IMG/VR virus record: IMGVR_UViG_3300046004_001633
Coordinates: 36,792-100,791 of that record
Source: a virus
Lineage: Duplodnaviria > Heunggongvirae > Uroviricota > Caudoviricetes
Strand: one strand, 5' to 3'
Length of the DNA stretch: 64,000 nt
Position numbers and translations under genes: made by a program
Notes under the pieces: generated by a model
Told to the model about the DNA's origin: nothing
The model's database searches: none
The model's input: the letters and a program-made list of their open reading frames with translations, nothing else
Shown here: piece by piece, positions 2,915 to 37,393 of the stretch
Numbering within the stretch: position 1 is the stretch's first letter
Layout of the letters: every line of letters starts with the position of its first letter

Positions 2915-2947
2915 ACTAATAATATATAAAATTTATTTCATAAAACC

Positions 2948-2992
2948 AAAAAAACCCTAGCAGTTTCTGTGGATCAAACAGTCTTACTAGGG
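2948..2992 (-). terminator. rho-independent terminator-like hairpin plus U7 tract
   Basis: CCCTAG...CTAGGG stem enclosing an inner CTGT/ACAG hairpin. Followed on the minus strand by UUUUUUU. Sits between the tRNA/ncRNA block and the gene starting at 2914. Confidence 0.55.
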
Positions 2993-3340
2993 TGTGATAA
3001 TTGGTTATATGGTTGTCCATGAAGGCACCGTCGTGCACCCATAAATCAGATCCAATTTCCCAATATCGGAAAAGACCATCTAGGTGAGCGGATCTTACGG
3101 GACGCCCGATGGTTCTTGAGCCTGCAGATTCTATCTACAGGGGGCAAAAGACACATCCTGGTACGCGCAACCGGAGACACTCCGATCCATTAAGCGTGAT
3201 GTGTACTATTGTTTATAAATATTTAAAATAAAAGCTAGGTCACCGATGCCACCTAGCTGTGGAGAGTTATTTAATGACATTTTTTTACTTAAGCAGCAGG
3301 GTCTCTCTTAACTGTCAAACCCGAATCGGTATTAAGGTGT

Positions 3341-3445
3341 AGTCAGGACAGGATTCGAACCTGTATGTGTAACTTTCTTGGCCCTTCCCCAATGGCACAC
3401 TATCCACTCGTTAATTTAGCGTCTAACCAATTCCGCCACCTGACT
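3341..3445 (-). ncRNA. aberrant 105-nt tRNA-like gene
   Basis: Acceptor AGTCAGG/CCTGACT, D-arm GCGG-AATTGGTTAGA-CGC and T-arm ACAGG-TTCGAAT-CCTGT are all canonical. About 50 nt lie between the D- and T-arms with no clean anticodon stem. Inner hairpins GTGTG/CACAT and TTGG/CCAA are present. Confidence 0.4.
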
Positions 3446-3994
3446 AATACCGACGCCTTTACTTTCACGAGGACTTGCATGTCTTTTTCAATATTTCTAT
3501 CTTAGGACCCCACCGGTATTTTTTGTAGGGCTCCCAATATCCCTACACGCACCTAAAGTTTTATCCCTAAAGTGATTACTCACCGCAAATCGGGGCCGGC
3601 TGGTGTTTATCCTTTAACCGGATTGGTTTTAATAGTTGAGGTTGAGAACCTCTGTGTTGTGTATGCAGAACTTCTCATACCTTCATCTCATTCATACCTC
3701 ACATGAACAACACATTTAATAAAACTAAGGCGTATTACATTATACTACTTTCTCTTACGAGCCTGTGACAGTTCTAGCTGCCTATTTCCTTAGTTTTAAT
3801 AACATACCCTGTCAGCCCAAGTTGCTGAATATTAGACTTAGCATTAAAGGGTTGTCCTAATATCCTTCCGCAAACAACTCCACTCTTGGTTGTGGATTCT
3901 AACTTCAATAGTTTCTGTACCGAAATACAGGTTGGAATACACAACAGTTATTTGTTTACTTCAAGCAGGGTAATATTTCAAAGAACGTTTTAGA

Positions 3995-4063
3995 AGCGGA
4001 TTCAGGACTCGAACCTGGCCATGGGGTTATGAGCCCCTTGTGCTACCAATTACACCAAACCGC
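3995..4063 (-). tRNA. tRNA-Met/fMet (anticodon CAT), short form
   Basis: T-arm CCAGG-TTCGAGT-CCTGA. Anticodon loop CTCATAA with a GGG/CCC anticodon stem. D-loop TAATTGGTAG. Acceptor has a 1-72 mismatch (initiator-like). Confidence 0.6.
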
Positions 4064-4069
4064 AATGTG

Positions 4070-4143
4070 TACTCCTAGCAGGACTCGAACCTGCAACGAC
4101 TAGATCCTAAATCTAGTGTGTCTACCAATTCCACCATAGAAGC
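4070..4143 (-). tRNA. type-I tRNA with anticodon TAG (Leu-decoding anticodon, short 5-nt variable loop)
   Basis: Clean cloverleaf. Acceptor GCTTCTA/TAGGAGT with two G-U pairs. Anticodon stem CTAGA/TCTAG, loop TTTAGGA. Variable loop TCGTT. T-arm GCAGG-TTCGAGT-CCTGC. Discriminator A. Confidence 0.55.
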
Positions 4144-4170
4144 ATTTATACCAATATTGTCAATGAACTT

Positions 4171-4226
4171 TGTCTTCTTAATTACTCTTATATAATAAGA
4201 AATAAATCAATTGAATCCAACCTTTT
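4171..4226 (-). promoter_or_regulatory. sigma70-like promoter motif TTGGAT-N17-TATTAT inside the tRNA cluster
   Basis: Minus strand: TTGGAT (4220..4215), 17-nt spacer, TATTAT (4197..4192). Shares the AGAAAT spacer signature with 8 other copies. Confidence 0.5.
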
Positions 4227-4242
4227 CGGAAACTTTTTTGAG

Positions 4243-4312
4243 TATAAGGTAAGAATCGAACTTACACTATTAGTTTTGCAGACTAACCGACCACCCCAAT
4301 CAACTTATACAA
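4243..4312 (-). tRNA. tRNA-Cys (anticodon GCA)
   Basis: Acceptor GTATAAG/CTTATAC. Anticodon stem TTAGT/ACTAA, loop CTGCAAA. T-arm GTAAG-TTCGATT-CTTAC. Weak D-stem. Confidence 0.5.
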
Positions 4313-4315
4313 TTG

Positions 4316-4388
4316 TGGACAGAGAGGGAATTGAACCCGCGACACCTAGAGCTTCAATCTAGTGCTCTACCAACTGAGCTACCTGTCC
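4316..4388 (-). tRNA. tRNA-Phe (anticodon GAA)
   Basis: GGACAGG-TA-GCTC-AGTTGGTAGA-GCAC. Anticodon stem CTAGA/TCTAG, loop TTGAAGC. T-loop TTCAATT. Confidence 0.85.
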
Positions 4389-4456
4389 TTCTTCGGGGAG
4401 GACTTGGCTGAGGTATCCTAACGGTTCTACCCTCAACACTCGCCTCCCGTCTTATG
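4389..4456 (-). ncRNA. GC-rich 68-nt hairpin element between tRNA-Trp and tRNA-Phe (possible tRNA remnant or small RNA)
   Basis: Minus strand GGGAGGCG...CCTCCCCG forms a long stem. No T-loop or anticodon architecture. Confidence 0.25.
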
Positions 4457-4530
4457 CACGCCTGGATGGATTCGAACCACCAACACTTGGATTTGGAATC
4501 CAATGCTCTACCAATTGGAGCTACAGACGC
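4457..4530 (-). tRNA. tRNA-Trp (anticodon CCA)
   Basis: GCGTCTG-TA-GCTC-CAATTGGTA-GAGC. Anticodon stem TTGGA/TCCAA, loop TTCCAAA. T-arm GGTGG-TTCGAAT-CCATC. Confidence 0.8.
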
Positions 4531-4574
4531 ATTTTATCCGACCTAGCTCGGATCACACATCGGATCTTTTATTG

Positions 4575-4647
4575 TACCCTTACAGAGACTCAAACTCCAA
4601 TCTTCCCCTTAGAAGGGGGATGTTCTATTCAATTGAACTATAAAGGC
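4575..4647 (-). tRNA. tRNA-Arg (anticodon TCT) with non-canonical T-loop TTTGAGT and a D-loop lacking GG
   Basis: GCCTTTA-TA-GTTC-AATTGAATA-GAAC. Anticodon stem TCCCC/GGGGA, loop CTTCTAA. T-arm TGGAG-TTTGAGT-CTCTG. Confidence 0.7.
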
Positions 4648-4652
4648 ATTAG

Positions 4653-4724
4653 TACCCTCAAAGAGATTCGAACTCCTATTCCTCGGTTCGTAGCCGAGTG
4701 TTCTATCCGTTGAACTATGTGGGC
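4653..4724 (-). tRNA. tRNA-Arg (anticodon ACG)
   Basis: GCCCACA-TA-GTTC-AACGGATA-GAAC. Anticodon stem CTCGG/CCGAG, loop CTACGAA. T-arm AGGAG-TTCGAAT-CTCTT. Confidence 0.8.
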
Positions 4725-4730
4725 AATTTG

Positions 4731-4804
4731 GGTGAATGGTGGGTTTCGATCCCACTACCTCCAGAATCACAATCTGGCACTCTTCCGATTGAGCTACAAA
4801 CACC
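4731..4804 (-). tRNA. tRNA-His (anticodon GTG) with extra 5' G-1
   Basis: G-1 opposite C73. D-arm GCTC-AATCGGAA-GAGT. Anticodon stem CCAGA/TCTGG, loop TTGTGAT. Unusual T-loop ATCGAAA in GTGGG/CCCAC stem. Confidence 0.7.
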
Positions 4805-4805
4805 A

Positions 4806-4836
4806 TTTAAAAAACCCCACTCCGTAAGTGGGGAGG
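4806..4836 (-). terminator. hairpin plus U7 tract immediately 5' of tRNA-His
   Basis: CCCCAC-UUACGGA-GUGGGG on the minus strand followed by UUUUUUU. Ends 4 nt before the tRNA-His 5' end. Confidence 0.5.
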
Positions 4837-4839
4837 GCA

Positions 4840-5066
4840 ACTTAAGGCAATGCCATTGGATGAACTAGTCATCGCCATTACATGCACACTTTGTGTACCG
4901 TAGTACCGAGTAATGGTAATGATCCACTCTAAGGTCGGATATGAACCAACCTCGGTCCCTGACCACTCGGCATTCTGTGGAAGACAGTGTACTCGAAACA
5001 CATACCTTGCGGTACCACTCGCTTAGCAGGCGGTGACAGTTCCTAACTGCTTTACCTTCCATTGTG
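4840..5066 (-). ncRNA. ~225-nt ORF-poor structured spacer in the tRNA cluster (candidate stable small RNA)
   Basis: No tRNA signatures. Only short shadow ORFs. Moderately GC-rich with many local stems. Position is analogous to the T4 tRNA-region stable RNAs. Confidence 0.25.
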
Positions 5067-5140
5067 TATTCAAGATAGGATTTGAACCTATGACCTCCTC
5101 GGTATCAGCGAGGCGCTCTAACCAACTGAGCTACATGAAT
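5067..5140 (-). tRNA. tRNA-Ile (anticodon GAT)
   Basis: ATTCATG-TA-GCTC-AGTTGGTTA-GAGC. Anticodon stem CCTCG/CGAGG, loop CTGATAC. T-arm ATAGG-TTCAAAT-CCTAT. Confidence 0.85.
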
Positions 5141-5146
5141 ATATTG

Positions 5147-5218
5147 AGGACTAGGGGAATTACGATATCCCGACCTGACGCTTAACAGGCGCCTGCTCTG
5201 CCTCTGAGCTACCAATCC
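5147..5218 (-). tRNA. tRNA-Asn (anticodon GTT) with atypical T-loop ATCGTAA
   Basis: GGATTGG-TA-GCTC-AGAGGCA-GAGC. Anticodon stem GGCGC/GCGTC, loop CTGTTAA. T-region GGGAT-ATCGTAA-TTCCC. Confidence 0.65.
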
Positions 5219-5224
5219 TTATAG

Positions 5225-5308
5225 TGCCGCAGGTAGGATTCGAACCTACTCAGCCTTCCGACAACAGATTTACAGTCTGCCCCGACTCTCCAACTTCAGC
5301 GCTACGGC
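5225..5308 (-). tRNA. tRNA-Tyr (anticodon GTA), type II with long variable arm
   Basis: Acceptor GCCGTAG/CTGCGGC. Anticodon stem GCAGA/TCTGT, loop CTGTAAA. 14-nt variable arm. T-arm GTAGG-TTCGAAT-CCTAC. Confidence 0.8.
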
Positions 5309-5313
5309 ATTTG

Positions 5314-5386
5314 TACACCCTATAGGATTCGAACCTATGACATTTGCTATGTAAAAGCAATGCTCTACCAACTGAGCTAAAGGTGC
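5314..5386 (-). tRNA. tRNA-Val (anticodon TAC)
   Basis: GCACCTT-TA-GCTC-AGTTGGTA-GAGC. Anticodon stem TTGCT/AGCAA, loop TTTACAT. T-arm ATAGG-TTCGAAT-CCTAT. Confidence 0.85.
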
Positions 5387-5395
5387 ATTTGTTTG

Positions 5396-5469
5396 TGATC
5401 CCGGTGAGGTTCGAACTCACGACTCCCTAATTAAAAGTTAGGTGCTCTAACCAACTGAGCTACGAGATC
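5396..5469 (-). tRNA. tRNA-Lys (anticodon TTT)
   Basis: GATCTCG-TA-GCTC-AGTTGGTTA-GAGC. Anticodon stem CCTAA/TTAGG, loop CTTTTAA. T-arm GTGAG-TTCGAAC-CTCAC. Confidence 0.85.
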
Positions 5470-5539
5470 GGTCGTTTGCGATACTTATCGCTCTTGTCAC
5501 TTTCCATGATCTACCTTTTATTTGTTATTAACTGTTTTG

Positions 5540-5612
5540 TCGAAAGTGCCAGATTCGAACTGTGCTTGAATGTCCCAAACATCCCGTGCTACCGGATTAC
5601 ACTACACTCTCG
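5540..5612 (-). tRNA. tRNA-Pro (anticodon TGG), irregular T-stem
   Basis: CGAGAGT acceptor. D-arm GTG-TAATCCGGTAG-CAC. Anticodon stem GGATG/CATTC, loop TTTGGGA. T-loop TTCGAAT with only 3 clean T-stem pairs. Overlaps the last codons of ORF 5597..6229. Confidence 0.55.
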
Positions 5613-6229
5613 ATATAATTTTTAATAATTGAAATATCACCATATATTATATTAATACATGTTGAAACTTTTTCCATTTTTTCTTTGCCCACTTCCATAC
5701 AATGTGGATTTTTTGGATCTAAATACATATCATAGTCAGTCAAATAAAAATCTGGATAATATAATCTAGATTTACCATCATTACTAATCCATTTAATACA
5801 AGCAGGTCGTATCCACTTTATATTTTTACTATCTAATAATTGAGCTATTTCCAATTCCCAACTCGATTCTAAAACAACTCCGTTATATATTATAGTTTTC
5901 CTACTGCCGTTTCTATAAGAACGATTCGTGCTAGCGCTAATACTACATAGTCTAGAACATGTTTTCTTTTTTCTATTATTATATTCTAATTTAGTTTTAC
6001 AAATTTTACAATGATTTGGATTTTCATTATATAATAATATATTTTTAGCGAGTATTTTATCTGACCCATTATACATACTTCTAAATGGTTGAAGTTTTAG
6101 TATACTATCCGATATTTTCTTTTTAACTTCATCGCTCCGATCTCTGCTATTTCTACATTGCAAAGAACAATATGAAACCAAACCTTTTGTGGGTTCAAAT
6201 TCATCGCTACATTTCTTACATATTTTCAT
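5597..6229 (-). CDS. Zn-finger protein with PD-(D/E)XK-like C-terminal region (possible homing endonuclease embedded in the tRNA cluster)
   Basis: Two Cys4 ribbons (CKKC...CSLQC and CKIC...CSRLC). C-terminal LESSWELEIAQLLD...YYPDFYL resembles a restriction-endonuclease-like core. AT-rich gene between two tRNA blocks. Confidence 0.35.
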   Translation of the reverse strand: MKICKKCSDEFEPTKGLVSYCSLQCRNSRDRSDEVKKKISDSILKLQPFRSMYNGSDKILAKNILLYNENPNHCKICKTKLEYNNRKKKTCSRLCSISASTNRSYRNGSRKTIIYNGVVLESSWELEIAQLLDSKNIKWIRPACIKWISNDGKSRLYYPDFYLTDYDMYLDPKNPHCMEVGKEKMEKVSTCINIIYGDISIIKNYIESVV

Positions 6230-6289
6230 ACAATTCCTTTATTATAAATATAGAGTCGAACCTCAAACCATACAATCAAACTGTTATTG

Positions 6290-6373
6290 AGGAAGCCTGA
6301 GGTATCGATCCCCATACCTTTCGGTACCACTAGTTTTCAAGACTAGGTTAAGCGCCAGCTTAATTAAACTTCC
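6290..6373 (-). tRNA. tRNA-Ser (anticodon TGA), type II with atypical T-loop ATCGATA
   Basis: Acceptor GGAAGTT/GGCTTCC. Anticodon stem CTAGT/ACTAG, loop CTTGAAA. Long variable arm TGGTACCGAAAGGTA. T-region TGGGG-ATCGATA-CCTCA. Confidence 0.65.
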
Positions 6374-6378
6374 TTATG

Positions 6379-6450
6379 ATCTCCCCCAAGGTCTCGAACC
6401 TTAATTTTATGGCCCAAAACCACACGTCCTGCCAATTAGACGAGGGGAGA
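6379..6450 (-). tRNA. tRNA-Gln (anticodon TTG)
   Basis: TCTCCCC-TC-GTC-AATTGGCAG-GAC. Anticodon stem TGTGG/CCATA, loop TTTTGGG. T-arm TAAGG-TTCGAGA-CCTTG. Confidence 0.7.
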
Positions 6451-6487
6451 ATTTAATTTACCAATATGTCAAACAACTTTTATTCTG

Positions 6488-6560
6488 AGCTTTCTATAGG
6501 ATTCGAACCTATGACCCCTTCATTACAAGTGAAGTGCTCTACCAACTGAGCTAAGAAAGC
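6488..6560 (-). tRNA. tRNA-Thr (anticodon TGT)
   Basis: GCTTTCT-TA-GCTC-AGTTGGTA-GAGC. Anticodon stem CTTCA/TGAAG, loop CTTGTAA. T-arm ATAGG-TTCGAAT-CCTAT. Confidence 0.85.
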
Positions 6561-7285: not shown

Positions 7286-8515
7286 TTAATTACTTAAGGG
7301 AGCTTTAATTGATGGGTGTGACTGATAGTTTTGAATTTGAAAGTCGGATATTTCAAGTCCTTGAAGATTTGTTGCTAATGGTCCTACACCACATTCTCCG
7401 GATTCCGTTGGCCAAAACTCTGTGTTGATGTTTAATGTAGGTAGTGGATATGGTTCTCTTGTTCGTTTTGGGATACCAGCTTTATCAAATTGTTCTTCAC
7501 GAGACCAATCATTCATTCTAAACTCATATCCTTTATCTTCAAACATTATATACCTTTCAGATTCACTTAATTCCCTCCCAGTTTGTTCTTTTGCTTGTTC
7601 AATATGATTCAAATACAAATGCGTATCACCCAAGTTTCCAATCAATTCATCAGGAACCATATTAACTGCCTTAGCAATGATTTCTAATAACAGGCCGTAA
7701 GATGCAATGTTGAATGGTAAACCTAAGAATGTATCTACTGAACGTTGATTCCACATTAAAGAGATTGCTCTGGTTGGGCTATTTTCGTAATTTAAATCTT
7801 CTTCAATTTGTTCTCTCGTTCTGTTTAGATAATATAAACCTCTAACATTATGAGAATATTCAAATCGTTCTTCCCAACTCAACTCTCTTGTATAAACTTG
7901 AAACCCATAATGACATGGTGGAAGTACCATTAAATCCAATTCTCCAACATTCCAAGCATTAACCATCAATCGTCTTGAGTCCGGGTTTGTTTTAAGGTCG
8001 TTGATTAGGTTTGTAATTTGGTCTGTAACTTTAACTGCAACTTGACAATTTTCTTCTGTTACATTATATGGTATGAATTGCTTCCATTCTCTCCATTGTT
8101 TACCATACACGGGACCTAAGTCACCAAACTGATCAGCATGCCATTTATCGAGACTAATCGACTTAATCAACTCTTCCTGTGTAAACTTTTTAGGTACATC
8201 AAACGGTGTGGTTTTGCTCATATGTTCATACCATTTTTCATATGCTTTATAGGCATCCCCATCCCAAATATGACAATCATTGTCTACTAAATACTTAATG
8301 TTTGTATCACCACGTAAGAACCATAACAATTCTGTTGTAATTGTTTTGAATGGCATTTTCTTTGTTGTAAGAAGTGGAAATCCATCACTCATTTTATGAC
8401 GGATCTGTCTACCAAAAACACTAATTGTGCCAGTCCCAGTACGATCCATTTTACGGGTACCATTATCTAAAATGTCCTGTAATAAATCTGTGTATTGCCT
8501 ATCTAAATTATTCAT
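7286..8515 (-). CDS. thyA: thymidylate synthase (ThyA type) with insertions
   Basis: DRTGTGT, LLWFLRGDTN, PPCH (catalytic Cys), QRSVDTFLGLPFNIASY, GDTHLYLNH and HPSIKAPL all present. 409 aa because of inserts, one of which is duplicated in the adjacent ORF. Confidence 0.85.
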   Translation of the reverse strand: MNNLDRQYTDLLQDILDNGTRKMDRTGTGTISVFGRQIRHKMSDGFPLLTTKKMPFKTITTELLWFLRGDTNIKYLVDNDCHIWDGDAYKAYEKWYEHMSKTTPFDVPKKFTQEELIKSISLDKWHADQFGDLGPVYGKQWREWKQFIPYNVTEENCQVAVKVTDQITNLINDLKTNPDSRRLMVNAWNVGELDLMVLPPCHYGFQVYTRELSWEERFEYSHNVRGLYYLNRTREQIEEDLNYENSPTRAISLMWNQRSVDTFLGLPFNIASYGLLLEIIAKAVNMVPDELIGNLGDTHLYLNHIEQAKEQTGRELSESERYIMFEDKGYEFRMNDWSREEQFDKAGIPKRTREPYPLPTLNINTEFWPTESGECGVGPLATNLQGLEISDFQIQNYQSHPSIKAPLSN

Positions 8516-9541: not shown

Positions 9542-9850
9542 TTATTTAGAGCCAAACGTTGGGTTGAATTTGAAATCAACCCAAACTTTAGCAACAATTA
9601 AATTTAATCCTATCATGTAGCAGTTTACTAGATTACCTTCCCCAAACGTCTTTTTGATGGTGTCAGCATTATCTTTTCCAGCTTTTGTTCGACCAACTGC
9701 TCTAGATCGTTTGGCCCAAATACCTAATGACCACTTACGTCTAATGTCATTAGCCTCATAGTTTTCTAAAATGCTATCAGATCCTTCTTCCCATCGGTGT
9801 CTCAACACCCATGTTGCTTTAAAGCTTCCTATTCTAGTTCGTGTTATCAT
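9542..9850 (-). CDS. hypothetical protein
   Basis: 102 aa basic ORF abutting the ligase gene. Confidence 0.4.
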   Translation of the reverse strand: MITRTRIGSFKATWVLRHRWEEGSDSILENYEANDIRRKWSLGIWAKRSRAVGRTKAGKDNADTIKKTFGEGNLVNCYMIGLNLIVAKVWVDFKFNPTFGSK

Positions 9851-10977
9851 TAGTGTGAGTCTCCTACGTTATGTTTTTCTCCGTAGATTAAGTAATCTGG
9901 ATTGATCACTTTAGCTACTTTGTTTCTAGCTCCAGACCATTCCTTAATTACAATACCTTCGTGTGGCACTTTAGTTCCCGGGATAAAGTTCTTAAAGACA
10001 TATTTATCTTGCACTGCTTGGGACCATTTACCGATGTATAGTTCTTCTACACAAGGTAATCCCAACAATCCGATTGTTATCACAGAATTAAATGCATTCT
10101 CATACTTACCATTTACTACCACATCAAATCCAACAAACTCAATATCAGTTAACCCATAATCATAATTCGTTTGAATCCCAGCACCATAAATTTCTCCATA
10201 CAATACAATACCAGAACCTAAGTCAGATGGATAATCATAAATTTGTTCTACATGATCCCACAGCATTCGTCTGATATTGTATTTATCTGCAACTGTTCTC
10301 CATACATCAGTCGAGTAGAATCCTTGTGAATCAGATCCTTTCTCGCAATTATGTGATCCATATACATATTCATAGTCAATCCATTTATTAGCAACTCGGA
10401 AGAATTTCTTCAACTTGTCCCATCTAGATAGTGTCGTTTTCTTTACGATTCCATAACGTGCATTGGTGCCGTGTATCTTACGTGTAATCTCAACATTATC
10501 CTCTTCTGTAAACATACCCGTAACATTCTTGAGGTTAGGGAACTTGTAGTAGATGTGGAAGTTTGGATTGTCACGGTATTTAATCTTACGACCAGAAGCC
10601 AATTGGATTTGTTTAACTGGTGGTTCATACTTAGTAATGCCAAGTTCTTCCATTACATCTGTTCCATCTGTAATCGACTTAAATCGGATATGTACAATTG
10701 GAATAATTAAACATTCACTATAAACGCCGCGAAGTTTAACTGTTCTTACTCGTTGTCCTTTTCTCAAGTATCCGGTTACTCCAACCTTGTCAGATAATTC
10801 TTGTGGAATTACAGCATCAGTAGTTGCAATTATAACTAAGGAATCTTTGTTATATTCACCTTTTTTGGTAATTGCATTCCAACCACCTACTACTGCTAAC
10901 TCAATGTTGTCTGCGCCTTCAATTGCTTTAATTTCGGTTACTCGTCCTACGTAACATACGCTGTTTTGATTTTCCAT
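9850..10977 (-). CDS. ATP-dependent RNA ligase, Rnl2/Rnl5-like with N-terminal OB-like domain
   Basis: Nucleotidyltransferase motif I KIHGTN (as in T4 Rnl2 K35) at ~residue 168. Preceded by a ~160-aa N-terminal domain as in Naegleria/Deinococcus Rnl5-type nick-sealing ligases. Adjacent to kinase and phosphoesterase genes. Confidence 0.55.
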   Translation of the reverse strand: MENQNSVCYVGRVTEIKAIEGADNIELAVVGGWNAITKKGEYNKDSLVIIATTDAVIPQELSDKVGVTGYLRKGQRVRTVKLRGVYSECLIIPIVHIRFKSITDGTDVMEELGITKYEPPVKQIQLASGRKIKYRDNPNFHIYYKFPNLKNVTGMFTEEDNVEITRKIHGTNARYGIVKKTTLSRWDKLKKFFRVANKWIDYEYVYGSHNCEKGSDSQGFYSTDVWRTVADKYNIRRMLWDHVEQIYDYPSDLGSGIVLYGEIYGAGIQTNYDYGLTDIEFVGFDVVVNGKYENAFNSVITIGLLGLPCVEELYIGKWSQAVQDKYVFKNFIPGTKVPHEGIVIKEWSGARNKVAKVINPDYLIYGEKHNVGDSH

Positions 10978-10980
10978 TTC

Positions 10981-11364
10981 TTACAATTTTATTTCAAATC
11001 TGTTTTTCATTTGTTCTAACTTGTCTGCTGGTACTCCGTGGGCATTTACGCTGGCGTGTCGGTTTTCAACAATAACAGAAGAAACACGATATCCATATTG
11101 TTCAGCTAACCAATAATAAGCATCCATTTCCCATTCCTGAGTAAATGTGTTTGAAACTACAATGCTAAATCCTTTTACCATCCATGCTTCTGTCACTTCT
11201 TGGCACCATTTATGGGCTGCTTTGAGTTTAGATGCATCGAATTTATATTCACCATCATGCATAAAGTATCGATCTGCCTCAACATGATGAGTATCAACTA
11301 AATGTTTTGCAAATGTTGTTTTACCACTGCCAGGTAAACCTCTTAATAAGATTAATTCTTTCAT
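10981..11364 (-). CDS. P-loop polynucleotide kinase-like protein (5'-OH kinase)
   Basis: LRGLPGSGKTTFAKHL Walker A. 127 aa AAA_33/Pnk-like kinase domain. Genomic context between ligase and phosphoesterase. Confidence 0.55.
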   Translation of the reverse strand: MKELILLRGLPGSGKTTFAKHLVDTHHVEADRYFMHDGEYKFDASKLKAAHKWCQEVTEAWMVKGFSIVVSNTFTQEWEMDAYYWLAEQYGYRVSSVIVENRHASVNAHGVPADKLEQMKNRFEIKL

Positions 11365-11376
11365 AGCTAATTTATG

Positions 11377-11898
11377 TTAACGGGTAATTCCTAATTGTTC
11401 CAATGTCTTTGGCGTGTAATCAACTTGCTCACATGATACTCCGTGGTATCTACGATCAACACGCTTAAATATAGTGAAGCCCATAATGGTTATTTGCTTC
11501 ATTACAATATTTTCATGAATATGGCCGTGAATGATGCGTGGTACGCGGTGTTCTAACTCCATCGGGTGCACTGGGCAATGAGATAACCAAATGCCTTTAT
11601 ATCGTGTTAAACCACTAACAGATTGAACATACTTCATCAACTCCAGAATATCTCTTGGTAGATCATGATTTCCTAACACAACCTTTTTCATTCCGTTTAG
11701 TCTGGATAACAATGGATACGGTTTAGCCGATTCCATTGTTACATCACCTAGGATATATGTTAGGTCTTGTTTTTTAACTACACTGTTCCATTGGGTAATG
11801 ATGTGCTCATCATGTTCCTCTACTGTAGCAAAGCCACGTTTCAATGCCATGTTAACATGACCAAAATGTAGATCTGCTATAAATCTTACTTGTGCCAT
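11377..11898 (-). CDS. calcineurin-like phosphoesterase (candidate 2',3'-phosphatase of the RNA repair cassette)
   Basis: DLHFGH, GDV, GNHD and GHIHE metallophosphatase motifs. 173 aa. Same fold as the phosphatase domain of Clostridium thermocellum Pnkp. Confidence 0.6.
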   Translation of the reverse strand: MAQVRFIADLHFGHVNMALKRGFATVEEHDEHIITQWNSVVKKQDLTYILGDVTMESAKPYPLLSRLNGMKKVVLGNHDLPRDILELMKYVQSVSGLTRYKGIWLSHCPVHPMELEHRVPRIIHGHIHENIVMKQITIMGFTIFKRVDRRYHGVSCEQVDYTPKTLEQLGITR

Positions 11899-11920
11899 TC
11901 TTTTTCTTTATAATAAGAAA

Positions 11921-12151
11921 TTAATCGGCAATATCCAAATCTATATCAGGAATTGTTTCGCAAAACATAAAATGAGTTCCTGATTGAATAACTATATCAG
12001 CTCCACACCATTGTTGGAACATTTCTATGTATTCTCTGCGAGGAGCAGTGTCAATGCGTTCAGCAAAGTGATGTATTAGTTTTTGGTGTAGCACATGATA
12101 TGCTACGTCGTTGTGTGTTATGATGTTACCTAGCATAGCTCTGGAATACAC
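11921..12151 (-). CDS. hypothetical protein
   Basis: 76 aa. Overlaps the next ORF by 26 nt. Confidence 0.35.
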   Translation of the reverse strand: MYSRAMLGNIITHNDVAYHVLHQKLIHHFAERIDTAPRREYIEMFQQWCGADIVIQSGTHFMFCETIPDIDLDIAD

Positions 12152-12461
12152 AAATGAATTCTAAATCGTTGTCAGCTCCATGTTCATCGTTCATTACTTT
12201 GTGGAACATTCCACCTGGTATTAAAACAATGTCTCCTGGTTTAATTGGGATGATCTCATCGCCTAATTGCATAGAGCCATAACCGGTTTGGAAGAAGTAT
12301 ACCTCATCTAAGTCGTCATGGCTATGTCCTGTGGTGGTATGGGTTGGGTGTAGTATTGTTTTAGATAATGTTAAATTGTTTAGGATTGCATTGTCTATTA
12401 CCGTGTATACGGCGGTCTCCCGCACTATAGTGCCGGCAATGTCTTGTGTATTTACTTTCAT
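12126..12461 (-). CDS. cupin-fold protein
   Basis: Both cupin motifs present: G-x5-HSH-x3-E-x6-G and GDIVLIPGGMFHKVMN. Confidence 0.6.
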   Translation of the reverse strand: MKVNTQDIAGTIVRETAVYTVIDNAILNNLTLSKTILHPTHTTTGHSHDDLDEVYFFQTGYGSMQLGDEIIPIKPGDIVLIPGGMFHKVMNDEHGADNDLEFICVFQSYAR

Positions 12462-12723: not shown

Positions 12724-14349
<1,626 letters not shown>

Positions 14350-17340: not shown

Positions 17341-17398
17341 AGCTTTTTTTATTATTATAAGAAATTTATTTTATTAATCCAACCTTTTTTAGAATTGT
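17341..17398 (-). promoter_or_regulatory. sigma70-like promoter TTGGAT-N17-TATAAT in front of the ATPase C-half ORF
   Basis: Minus strand TTGGAT (17382..17377), 17-nt spacer, TATAAT (17359..17354). Confidence 0.5.
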
Positions 17399-18058
17399 AT
17401 TTACTTGCCATTTACTAAGTTCGGTAACTTTACAGATTTCAGAACGTATGCTATTATCAGTGTACATACTAATAACAACTTGTTTAATATCATTGGTTAT
17501 TATAACTTTTGGCTTGCGCCCGGAATTTGACAAATCTCTATTTTTATATATTTCACTATTACGAATACCTTCTCGTATAGCGTTTATTCGACTATCTTTA
17601 TTTTCTTTCCAATTTTTACTAATTTTTTCTGAACGCTTAAGTTTTGTTGCAGCGGACATGTTTTTATGAAAATTAGTAATTGATTTTTTAAGTTTTTCTT
17701 TCGATGTGGAACATTTCCATTTTTCAGTTGAAATTTTACTCATTTTATTTGAAAACTTATCCCAATCTGATTTAGTAAATCCTTTAAAATTTCCAACCCC
17801 GTAATTTTCTTCTGCTATATTATAGAATTTGGTACTAGTAGCGGCATCAAATTTTTTAATCCAAAATACTTCCTTATCTCGTAATTCATCATATGTGTTA
17901 CAATATTCTAATATTTCTTTTTTAAAATTTTCTTTACCGTACTTTTTTATAGCAGAGTGTAATCTTTTCCCGGATCCTAAATAATTTGGATTGTTATGTT
18001 TGTCTTTACCAATATAAGATTTACCGTTAACTAGATTAGTTGTTTTATATACCACCAT
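17366..18058 (-). CDS. GIY-YIG homing endonuclease (free-standing, Seg/I-TevI-like)
   Basis: N-terminal VVYKTTNLVNGKSYIGKD...YLGSG...EVFWIKKF matches the GIY-x10-YIG module. Lys-rich C-terminal DNA-binding region. Sits exactly between the two halves of the AAA+ ATPase gene. Confidence 0.75.
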   Translation of the reverse strand: MVVYKTTNLVNGKSYIGKDKHNNPNYLGSGKRLHSAIKKYGKENFKKEILEYCNTYDELRDKEVFWIKKFDAATSTKFYNIAEENYGVGNFKGFTKSDWDKFSNKMSKISTEKWKCSTSKEKLKKSITNFHKNMSAATKLKRSEKISKNWKENKDSRINAIREGIRNSEIYKNRDLSNSGRKPKVIITNDIKQVVISMYTDNSIRSEICKVTELSKWQVNTILKKVGLIK

Positions 18059-36527: not shown

Positions 36528-37393
36528 AATTGTAATTTGTTCAATATTGTGTTAGTATCCATACCAGATGCTTGTCGTAAGTCATCATATGAACCGTATT
36601 CTGTAATAAATTTATTTTGTATTCCAATTCTAGTTACGGCTACATTAAATGTAGAGCTTATTAAGTCTCCTAAGCCGCCAGTAATAAAATGATTTTCTAC
36701 TGAGAATATTTTGCTATCACTATTGAATACTTTTGAAATTTCATTAATGGACTCTGTTGAGATATTTGATAATGTAGAAACATAGAATATTCCAATTTCT
36801 TCATCACGCAATACATCATCTAATAGATGTCCTGTTACAAACACGTATTTATTATTTTTAGATTTTTGAATAATATTAATCTCATTAGATTTAACTACTA
36901 GATCTTGTGTATGTGAATGATTTGATAATCGAAAATACTTAGGATTACCATTAGCCCATGATTGTTTAAATAATTGTTCGAATTCGGAAGCAGATCCGGG
37001 TTCGTATACATCCATTCCCGGAATACTTCTCATTAATGCAATATCACTATAACAATGATGAGTACAGCCCAAGTCAGCATAATCATATGTTCCACCAACA
37101 GTAATAATTGTAACATCGGTATTTTGATATCCTAATCCAACTTTTATTTGTTCATACGCTCTTTCTACAACAAATGGAGCAATTGTATGTATGATTGGTC
37201 GCATCCCTTCGAGAGACATACCAGCAGCAACATTAACTGTAGATTGTTCGCAAATTCCTATATTAAAAAATCGATCCGGTGCTAGATTCTGGGCATCGCG
37301 CAACAAGTAGTGACTAATATCTCCTATTAATATTACAGATTTGTCATCAGTTTGTACAATATTTTTGCATATTTCTGCGAATTTAGTTCTCAT
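36524..37393 (-). CDS. transketolase, C-terminal subunit (pyrimidine-binding domain)
   Basis: FFNIGICEQSTVNVAAGMSLEGMRPI...GGTYDYADLGCTHH matches the Tkt Pyr domain. Confidence 0.65.
   Translation of the reverse strand: MRTKFAEICKNIVQTDDKSVILIGDISHYLLRDAQNLAPDRFFNIGICEQSTVNVAAGMSLEGMRPIIHTIAPFVVERAYEQIKVGLGYQNTDVTIITVGGTYDYADLGCTHHCYSDIALMRSIPGMDVYEPGSASEFEQLFKQSWANGNPKYFRLSNHSHTQDLVVKSNEINIIQKSKNNKYVFVTGHLLDDVLRDEEIGIFYVSTLSNISTESINEISKVFNSDSKIFSVENHFITGGLGDLISSTFNVAVTRIGIQNKFITEYGSYDDLRQASGMDTNTILNKLQL

Follow-up and report, generated by a model that had tools for sequence, protein, structure and literature searches.

The stretch of DNA analysed here, referred to as the window, comprises 64,000 nucleotides (nt) of a virus of the class Caudoviricetes (positions 36,792 to 100,791 of the IMG/VR virus record IMGVR_UViG_3300046004_001633). 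At the end of an array of canonical tRNA genes on its minus strand lies a gene, here called the tRNA-like element (TLE), that keeps the acceptor stem, the D arm, the T arm and the core tertiary nucleotides of a tRNA and has no anticodon stem-loop, its variable arm being expanded into a conserved 34-nt domain of two helices. The outer parts of the gene form a nearly constant shell which, in freshwater phages, carries hundreds of unrelated, individually conserved cores. The parts of the TLE and its immediate surroundings are listed below; RNA position p corresponds to window position 3446 − p, i.e., the gene runs from 3445 to 3341.

3340–3445, minus strand: the TLE, 105 nt plus the discriminator A at 3340, identified by an Rfam tRNA match, metagenome homologues and covariation.
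3439–3445, minus strand: 5′ strand of the acceptor stem, AGUCAGG (RNA positions 1–7), whose partner is 3341–3347; covaries in relatives.
3419–3436, minus strand: D arm, GCGG-AAUUGGUUAGA-CGC (RNA positions 10–27), of the leucine-tRNA type (A14, A15, G18G19, A20a) by comparison with E. coli leuV.
3401–3417, minus strand: 17-nt segment AAAUUAACGAGUGGAUA (RNA positions 29–45) at the site of the anticodon arm, without a stem and unpaired in RNAalifold.
3367–3400, minus strand: extended variable-arm-like domain of 34 nt and two helices (RNA positions 46–79), defined by covariation.
3396–3400 paired with 3367–3371, minus strand: helix P1 (RNA positions 46–50/75–79), with two covarying pairs.
3378–3392, minus strand: hairpin P2 with the 7-nt loop G-G-N-A-G-R-N (stem at RNA positions 54–57/65–68), invariant.
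3365–3366, minus strand: unpaired AU ahead of the T stem, the U (3365) being the equivalent of U48 and the partner of A15.
3348–3364, minus strand: T arm, ACAGG-UUCGAAU-CCUGU (RNA positions 82–98), in which four of the five pairs change on both sides, e.g., to AUUGG/CCAAU.
3341–3347, minus strand: 3′ strand of the acceptor stem, CCUGACU (RNA positions 99–105), followed by A-C-A-C, so that CCA is not encoded.
3446–3523, minus strand: leader of 78 nt preceding the TLE; in the closest relatives, the two are conserved jointly.
3225–3258, minus strand: terminator-like hairpin, AGCUAGGU-(10 nt)-ACCUAGCU, then UUUAUUUU, ~80 nt downstream of the TLE, read from the sequence.
3993–6560, minus strand: the array of 17 canonical tRNA genes found by ARAGORN and Rfam, of which the TLE is the last unit.

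A sequence-only reading of this locus had described a 105-nt tRNA-like gene with acceptor, D and T arms and no normal anticodon arm, and both the Rfam tRNA model and covariation bear this out, placing the gene on the minus strand. The model (RF00005) scored the TLE at 35.9 bits against a gathering threshold of 29 (E = 7.7e-4 when the whole window is searched, 3.6e-6 locally) and aligned the acceptor, D and T arms at a posterior of ~1.0. The 7-bp acceptor stem, the two arms and their GG and UUCRANY loops are those of a canonical tRNA; however, the anticodon arm (5-bp stem, 7-nt loop) is missing between position 26 and the variable region, where the 17 anticodon-arm positions of the model are swapped for a 47-nt insertion. 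The TLE was not folded as a standard type II tRNA, for which it is wrongly built and, as had rightly been judged, too long. ARAGORN, run on the window, called 17 tRNAs, and the TLE was not among them. When Rfam covariance models were run at permissive thresholds on the TLE and its surroundings, only tRNA matched the TLE; no intron family matched it at E ≤ 10, in line with the earlier judgement that it does not host a group I intron. The lack of transfer-messenger RNA (tmRNA) features had also been read correctly, i.e., U3-A70 stands in place of G3.U70, there is no tag reading frame, and neither ARAGORN nor Rfam called a tmRNA in the window. The single-sequence folding energies of the whole TLE and of its 54-nt core are ordinary compared with shuffles (z of −0.76 and −0.01, respectively), so the case for its structure rests on sequence comparison.

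A metagenome scan specific to the core of the window's TLE found 96 loci with 84 distinct variants of this core type, every one of which sits within a tRNA shell. In an alignment of 60 full-length variants, 99.8% of the cells are paired across the acceptor stem (1–7/99–105), the D stem (10–12/25–27), P1 (46–50/75–79), P2 (54–57/65–68) and the T stem (82–86/94–98), and nine pairs show double-sided changes. None of 500 shuffles matched this covariation, and slid controls fall to 25–52% paired. RNAalifold independently yields the same helices and leaves positions 30–45 unpaired, and the 17 nt at the anticodon-arm site form no stem in any of the 60 homologues. The anticodon-like stem AAATT/AAGTT that the sequence-only reading had offered is not supported: it is paired in 63% of the cells, no better than slid controls, and has an invariant A.G in mid-stem. 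Its inner hairpin GTGTG/CACAT was right as a helix and wrong in register, since pair 46–79 covaries as GC/GU/AU and pair 47–78 as UA/CG/UG, which sets GUGUG against UACAC two bases further inward, i.e., P1. The other proposed inner hairpin, TTGG/CCAA, is P2 (UUGG/CCAA), which is compatible with the alignment but invariant and thus without covariation.

The invariance of P2 and of part of the internal loop arises in part by construction, because both were fixed by the search pattern, although both are also identical in five distinct variants recovered via the shell alone. The motif GUGGA (3403–3407) is invariant in 60 of the 60 aligned sequences although it lies outside every search pattern. 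A pseudoknot between 38–42 and 51–55 (with CCAUU) is a compatible, candidate pairing in this core type; it is 100% paired, changes on one side only, overlaps P2, and has a 3′ strand fixed by the pattern. The P2 loop varies as G-G-N-A-G-R-N; taken as an anticodon loop, it would show the leucine triplet NAG, its wobble base unconstrained, and a purine at 37, whereas GG would stand in place of Y32-U33. This NAG-like loop is possibly a relic of an ancestral anticodon arm, or a coincidence.

Comparison between related phages gives signs of selection. Between the window and its closest relative, L030, the TLE with its leader is 98.9% identical and the genes are 87–88% identical; between the window and L017, the values are 98.4% for the TLE and 78.5% for the tRNA-Met region. 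Other phages match the TLE at 98% with no further alignable DNA in the 12 kb compared. The same core also occurs under compensated shells, namely AGAUAGG/CCUAUCU with the T stem AUUGG/CCAAU, and AGUGGUA/UGCCACU. By inspection, other core types likewise have conserved loops and covarying closing stems, e.g., GGAAAGC/GCUUCC vs. GUAUUAC/GUAAUAC. The core of the window type thus appears, from these comparisons, to be under selection and not free to drift. A decaying tRNA-Leu pseudogene or non-functional duplicate would account for the missing anticodon arm and the ordinary single-sequence folding energy; however, this explanation is strongly disfavoured, as the 84 variants, which come from many samples, retain the helices via compensatory changes, and the TLE is more conserved than the neighbouring genes and tRNAs.

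Close relatives do not carry the same set of copies. In L030, the leader is directly preceded by a tRNA-Glu, and another TLE lies 64 nt downstream; both are missing from the window, which has one TLE against at least two in this close relative. Ten window-type relatives (L189, L125, L139, L147, L112, L119, L144, L168, L171 and L153) carry D-loop insertions of 20–65 nt, located after GGCGGAA and before (U)GGUAGACGC, i.e., between A15 and the U preceding G18G19. These insertions spare A14, A15, G18G19 and A20a, and the D loop is a second permissive site of the scaffold.

The window type is one of many. A first scan of IMG/VR, using a pattern of a leucine-type D arm with a T loop 48–70 nt further on, found 79 loci and 87 copies in which AGUCAGG/CCUGACU and ACAGG/CCUGU are nearly invariant though absent from the pattern, and in which the 48–70 nt between the D and T arms are wholly different from phage to phage. 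With a shorter gap (20–47 nt), the same shell gave 13 further matches; considered as tRNA-Leu genes of normal length, these were rejected, since 13 of 13 lack a canonical anticodon arm. An exact scan for the 3′ shell of the TLE found at least 119 stretches in IMG/VR. The family set, defined by a search anchored on both shell ends together with this exact scan, holds at least 562 copies and at least 442 distinct sequences at no fewer than 290 loci, with at least about 265 core types by rough clustering. The elements are ~60 to 190 nt long, and their cores range from ~20 to more than 120 nt. No prior description of this large family was found in the literature searched, and it is apparently undescribed. 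The earlier suggestion of a tRNA-derived RNA is upheld and considerably widened: the TLE is best read as a tRNA-derived non-coding RNA, and it belongs to a very large family in which a shell is combined with variable cores.

The copies come from uncultured freshwater phage contigs, and all of them share the strand of a phage tRNA array and lie inside it or at its edge, some only ~1–11 nt from canonical tRNAs. There are up to 13 copies per locus, with a median gap of 231 nt between arrayed TLEs. The largest array seen, L009 7183–12206 (plus strand), fits 13 shell-bearing elements of 69–141 nt, whose cores differ, into 5 kb; ~14 canonical tRNAs lie upstream of it. ARAGORN labels relatives of the TLE as tRNA-Ser(act), Leu(gag), Ile(aat), Pro(agg) or "???". 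One shell-bearing copy, L089 636–731 (plus strand), is near a normal class II tRNA-Leu(CAA), has an 8-nt anticodon loop and is called "tRNA-???(caag)" by ARAGORN; it could represent a transitional form or decode quadruplets. Near and distant searches of 50,697 cultured-phage records found no homologue of the 5′ half of the shell or of the core and returned only generic T-arm matches. Among 185,579 species genomes there were 18 shell matches, all on contigs of metagenome-assembled genomes (MAGs) that look phage-like, which argues that the shell is not a host tRNA. These 18 matches are mostly from freshwater and many are binned as Bacteroidota; judging from MAG binning only, the hosts of these phages may be Bacteroidota, for example Chitinophagaceae or Flavobacterium.

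Across core types, a search for a shared motif gave only weak k-mer enrichments. Among anticodon-like 7-nt loops, leucine triplets occur in 11 of 85 and U33 in 25 of 85, neither being enriched, and no shared splice-like boundaries were found across the cores. These results bear on whether the TLE might be a tRNA-Leu with an intron or insertion that is spliced to give a decoding tRNA, a form of which (an insertion or intron of ~30 nt in the anticodon loop) the sequence-only reading had put forward. The TLE is indeed ~20–30 nt longer than a class II tRNA, an RNA ligase gene lies nearby, and the P2 loop holds a NAG-like triplet. However, no combination of exons yields a conserved anticodon stem and no residual one is conserved, neither a group I intron nor another Rfam family matches, and the variable core lengths lack common boundaries. 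This explanation is therefore hardly credible.

The shell itself is of the leucine type. At positions 8–26 the family consensus matches E. coli tRNA-Leu(CAG) (leuV) exactly, the D loop of the window TLE having one extra U relative to leuV and to its close relatives. The discriminator is A in 416 of 455 distinct family copies (91%) and the next base is C in 97.6%, with CCA encoded in 14 of the 455; in 120 of 132 distinct members (91%), the T stem is preceded by U. The TLE contains all the nucleotides of A15:U48, G18G19, A20a, U8:A14 and the T-loop pair U54:A58, whose tertiary pairs would be expected to form. With a bacterial class II tRNA-Leu it thus shares the 7-bp acceptor stem, A73, the U8/G9 linker, the D arm (leuV 8–26), the UUCGAAU T loop, the core nucleotides of the A15:U48 type, and an arm that emerges just before the T stem, since the two-helix arm (46–79) stops 2 nt before it, in the place of the class II long variable arm. 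In contrast to such a tRNA, it has 17 conserved unpaired nt instead of an anticodon stem-loop, a 34-nt two-helix variable arm and no decoding; as it lacks an anticodon arm, the sole candidate for a leucine anticodon is the NAG-like triplet of the P2 loop. The tRNA-Leu(UAA/UAG) genes of related phages have acceptor stems unrelated to the shell, so the shell is not that of their decoding tRNA-Leu. The tRNA-Leu(UAG) of the window itself (4069–4143, minus strand) is only 75 nt long; its D arm is of the leucine type and its anticodon arm is normal, but it lacks a long variable arm, whereas its counterparts in relatives are class II and 82–86 nt long. Its architecture mirrors that of the TLE, in which the long arm is retained and the anticodon arm is gone.

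E. coli leucyl-tRNA synthetase (LeuRS) requires A73, A15:U48, G18G19, A20a and the D/T-loop tertiary pairs, while the anticodon and the variable arm are dispensable for leucylation, the anticodon arm mattering for editing only, and a minimal tRNA-Leu lacking both the anticodon arm and the variable arm is still charged (PMC9976931). The elements needed by LeuRS are kept in the TLE and only parts that LeuRS ignores are lost or remodelled, suggesting, with moderate confidence, that the TLE is probably bound and possibly leucylated by the host LeuRS and that it reads no codon.

A tRNA mimic without an anticodon arm invites comparison with the tRNA-like domain of tmRNA. This domain is charged by a synthetase that ignores the anticodon, and the body of tmRNA emerges at the site of the long variable arm; the domain reportedly mimics a long-variable-arm tRNA without an anticodon arm (Bessho et al. 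2007). By analogy, a leucine-charged TLE might enter the ribosome without reading a codon, with the core substituting for the anticodon arm. The parallel architecture, the occurrence of pseudoknot-capable cores and the P2 loop, with its NAG triplet, free wobble and purine at "37", would agree with this. However, tmRNA has the alanine identity element G3.U70, a reduced D arm and a length of 350+ nt, whereas the TLE has U3-A70 and a full D arm, lacks a tag reading frame and is not called as a tmRNA by ARAGORN. Furthermore, a mimic of the ribosomal A site should be conserved, in contrast to at least about 265 core forms; "32–33" is GG rather than YU, and other core types have no anticodon-loop signature. 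Such a ribosome-directed adaptor is thus very improbable.

The role of the core is a separate question from that of the shell. A decoy for tRNA-targeting nucleases had been one option of the sequence-only reading. In a shell-only decoy or sponge, a surplus tRNA top half would titrate a host factor that binds the acceptor/T-arm/elbow or the class II shape, for instance a tRNA-targeting toxin or nuclease, LeuRS or EF-Tu, and the core would merely be "not an anticodon arm". The shell is indeed the constant part across all the core types, multi-copy arrays would raise the dose, and copy number varies between the window and L030. The genes upstream of the tRNA array are also relevant; a second metallophosphatase gene of the window is listed with them:

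11377–11898, minus strand: metallophosphatase, upstream of the tRNA array.
10981–11364, minus strand: AAA_33 P-loop kinase, adjoining the metallophosphatase gene.
9850–10977, minus strand: RNA ligase with a PHA02142 OB domain, adjoining the kinase gene.
1827–2528: second metallophosphatase.

The RNA ligase, kinase and metallophosphatase form a three-gene healing-and-sealing set for RNA repair, which, together with the large tRNA set, fits a conflict over tRNAs without tying the TLE to that conflict. However, the cores are constrained (GUGGA is invariant outside the search pattern and helices covary), the TLE has diverged less than canonical tRNAs in the phages compared, and anticodon-loop nucleases would find nothing to cut in it. 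A decoy acting through the shell is thus an unlikely explanation.

Alternatively, the fold could act in cis as punctuation, i.e., as an RNase P/RNase Z cleavage site that frees neighbouring non-coding RNAs or mRNAs from the array transcript. The flanks of the TLE, ~1 kb without open reading frames (ORFs), hold other conserved elements, and the gaps between arrayed TLEs would leave room for released RNAs. In contrast, any tRNA would suffice for this purpose, the covarying cores and the leucine-type identity set are unaccounted for, and some TLEs abut canonical tRNAs within a few nt, leaving nothing in between to release. Punctuation as the function of the element is therefore quite improbable.

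Several features of these flanks are of interest in their own right. The ~1 kb around the TLE (2915–3992) contains no ORF of at least 50 aa except one 56-aa TTG ORF, and Rfam gave no match to a non-coding RNA family there; blocks 3446–3525 and 3805–3984 are conserved in L017 (98% and 84%, respectively), and the region may hold further non-coding RNAs. A conserved hairpin element of ~54 nt at 3151–3204 (minus strand) has the interior ACGCUUAAUGGAUYGGAGUGUCUCCGGUUGCGCGUACCAGG, followed by CUUUUGC. Covariation is seen in the stem that closes it (ACACAUC/GAUGUGU in the window vs. CCUACC/GGUAGG in L030, L186 and L190), and the element lies downstream of the TLE in the window and upstream of the tRNA-Glu in L030. 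Within the tRNA array, an 83-nt class II tRNA-Ser(UGA)-like gene (6291–6373, minus strand), whose D arm is unusual and whose T loop has no UUC, was missed by ARAGORN and scored 44.1 bits on the tRNA-Sec model against a gathering threshold of 47; a T-loop-like remnant lies just downstream of it (6252–6262).

The window phage encodes a T4-type DNA polymerase; among cultured phages, Microcystis phage Mel-JY01 matches best, with 42.5% amino-acid identity. GroEL, RNR and ThyA are encoded as well. The GroEL-like chaperonin gene is at 12724–14346. The thymidylate synthase (7286–8515, minus strand, 409 aa) matches its Pfam model in two stretches over 7–336, pointing to an insertion when compared with the model of ~266 positions. 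A 230-aa protein encoded at 17366–18058 (minus strand) has a SegE-type GIY-YIG homing-endonuclease domain.

Taken together, we favour, with a rough probability of 0.6, the reading that the TLE is a functional gene whose RNA has the shape of a tRNA, does not decode and descends from a class II tRNA-Leu, and that the family as a whole consists of such a shell with functional cores. The TLE would, with high confidence, be co-transcribed with the tRNA array, cut out by RNase P and the 3′-end machinery and provided with CCA, and it would fold into an L-shaped top half. This maturation by the tRNA machinery is inferred from the tight packing among tRNAs, the lack of an encoded CCA, which several neighbouring tRNA genes share, and the terminator-like hairpin at 3225–3258, which was not listed by the terminator scanner because its loop exceeds 8 nt. 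With moderate confidence, the shell would serve as a handle, bound and possibly leucylated by the host LeuRS. More tentatively, and with low confidence, the core may be a specificity module, a small folded RNA binding a particular host or phage factor, and the family a natural "tRNA-scaffold" toolkit of accessory RNAs for host takeover or counter-defence. A specificity module is consistent with the conservation of the cores, with how many types of them there are, with the absence of a common motif or an anticodon-loop signature, and with the absence of an antisense target of the core within the 64-kb window, where the longest stretch complementary to the core, 10 nt, does not exceed that of shuffled cores.

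Several points weigh against this reading or limit its reach. Rules for LeuRS are known for E. coli, Aquifex and few others, which are not the likely hosts, and ~9% of the family copies lack A73. When ORFs were clustered all against all over 111 loci, no partner protein proved to be linked, the most widespread family being present in 10 loci, and in an Rfam search of seven TLE-rich loci the cores matched nothing but tRNA. The invariance of the shell is partly an ascertainment bias, because all loci were found via shell or core patterns. The near-invariant sequence of the shell, beyond its structure, exceeds what processing alone needs. Everything past a conserved structured gene is inference.

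A bolder version of the favoured reading is rather unlikely. It would have a modular system in freshwater phages in which a universal, anticodon-less handle chargeable by LeuRS, used for processing, CCA addition and perhaps leucylation, carries hundreds of interchangeable folded modules kept in arrays, each directed against a polymorphic factor of the host or of a rival phage, or in which leucine or RNA is delivered to non-canonical destinations. By analogy, such a system would be an RNA arsenal for counter-defence or host takeover, with a logic like that of anti-defence protein islands or pseudo-ToxI antitoxin mimics.

Known RNAs offer several partial parallels to the TLE. The nearest precedents, and probably its closest functional analogues, are RNAC (species 1) and RNAD (species 2) of phage T4, small stable non-coding RNAs whose roles are still unknown (PMC3014915, PMC9697503) and which, like the TLE, are encoded at the 3′ end of the tRNA cluster in a phage with a T4-type DNA polymerase. 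RNAC ends, like the TLE, in a T arm (CCGGGUUCGAAUCCCGG) and an acceptor-like pairing. However, RNAC scores only 17.5 bits, on the tRNA-Sec model; neither T4 RNA has a leucine-type D arm, and they form no multi-copy family of constant shell and variable core. BLAST of the TLE against the cultured-phage records gave short tRNA T-arm matches only, none of them in T4. GOLLD and ROOL are further structured RNAs of phage tRNA islands with unknown function (PMC12286853), and the bacterial tRNA-like Y RNA YrlA mimics the top half of a tRNA as the TLE does, but the TLE is ~100 nt long with open acceptor ends, whereas the ends of YrlA lie in a Ro-binding stem. In the window, no Rfam match of the TLE to GOLLD, ROOL, YrlA or another non-coding RNA family was found. 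The relative L017, which has the same TLE core, carries GOLLD at 11836–12243 (plus strand, 317 bits), a tmRNA at 13561–13958 (minus strand, 98.7 bits) and a freshwater-1 motif at 3348–3409 (plus strand, 87.7 bits), so that the family takes its place with the other enigmatic RNAs found in such tRNA islands of phages.

A tRNA body that serves the processing and stability of a structured RNA unrelated to it is familiar from the engineered tRNA scaffold and from the TMER genes of the gammaherpesvirus MHV68. The cargo of the engineered scaffold takes the place of the anticodon arm, and so does the TLE core. That scaffold is artificial, and the tRNA-miRNA genes of MHV68 are eukaryotic and transcribed by Pol III, with the cargo downstream of the tRNA. 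To our knowledge, no natural bacterial or phage counterpart of the tRNA scaffold has been described, and none was found in the literature searched.

The tRNA islands of phages are known for enigmatic RNAs, among them T4 RNAC and RNAD, which have remained unexplained for ~50 years, and GOLLD and ROOL as well. The present analysis exposes a far larger and highly regular class in which one tRNA-Leu-derived shell is shared by at least 442 distinct genes of at least about 265 core types, a single phage carrying as many as 13 copies. Genes of this type are invisible to ARAGORN and lie just above the threshold of the Rfam tRNA model, so that they are currently overlooked or mislabelled in annotation. 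As a putative natural counterpart to the engineered tRNA scaffold, the class also provides a test case for whether anticodon-independent recognition by a synthetase (alanine in tmRNA, leucine here) has been exploited a second time. It would, finally, open to structural and functional study hundreds of small conserved RNA folds that probably bind ligands or proteins.

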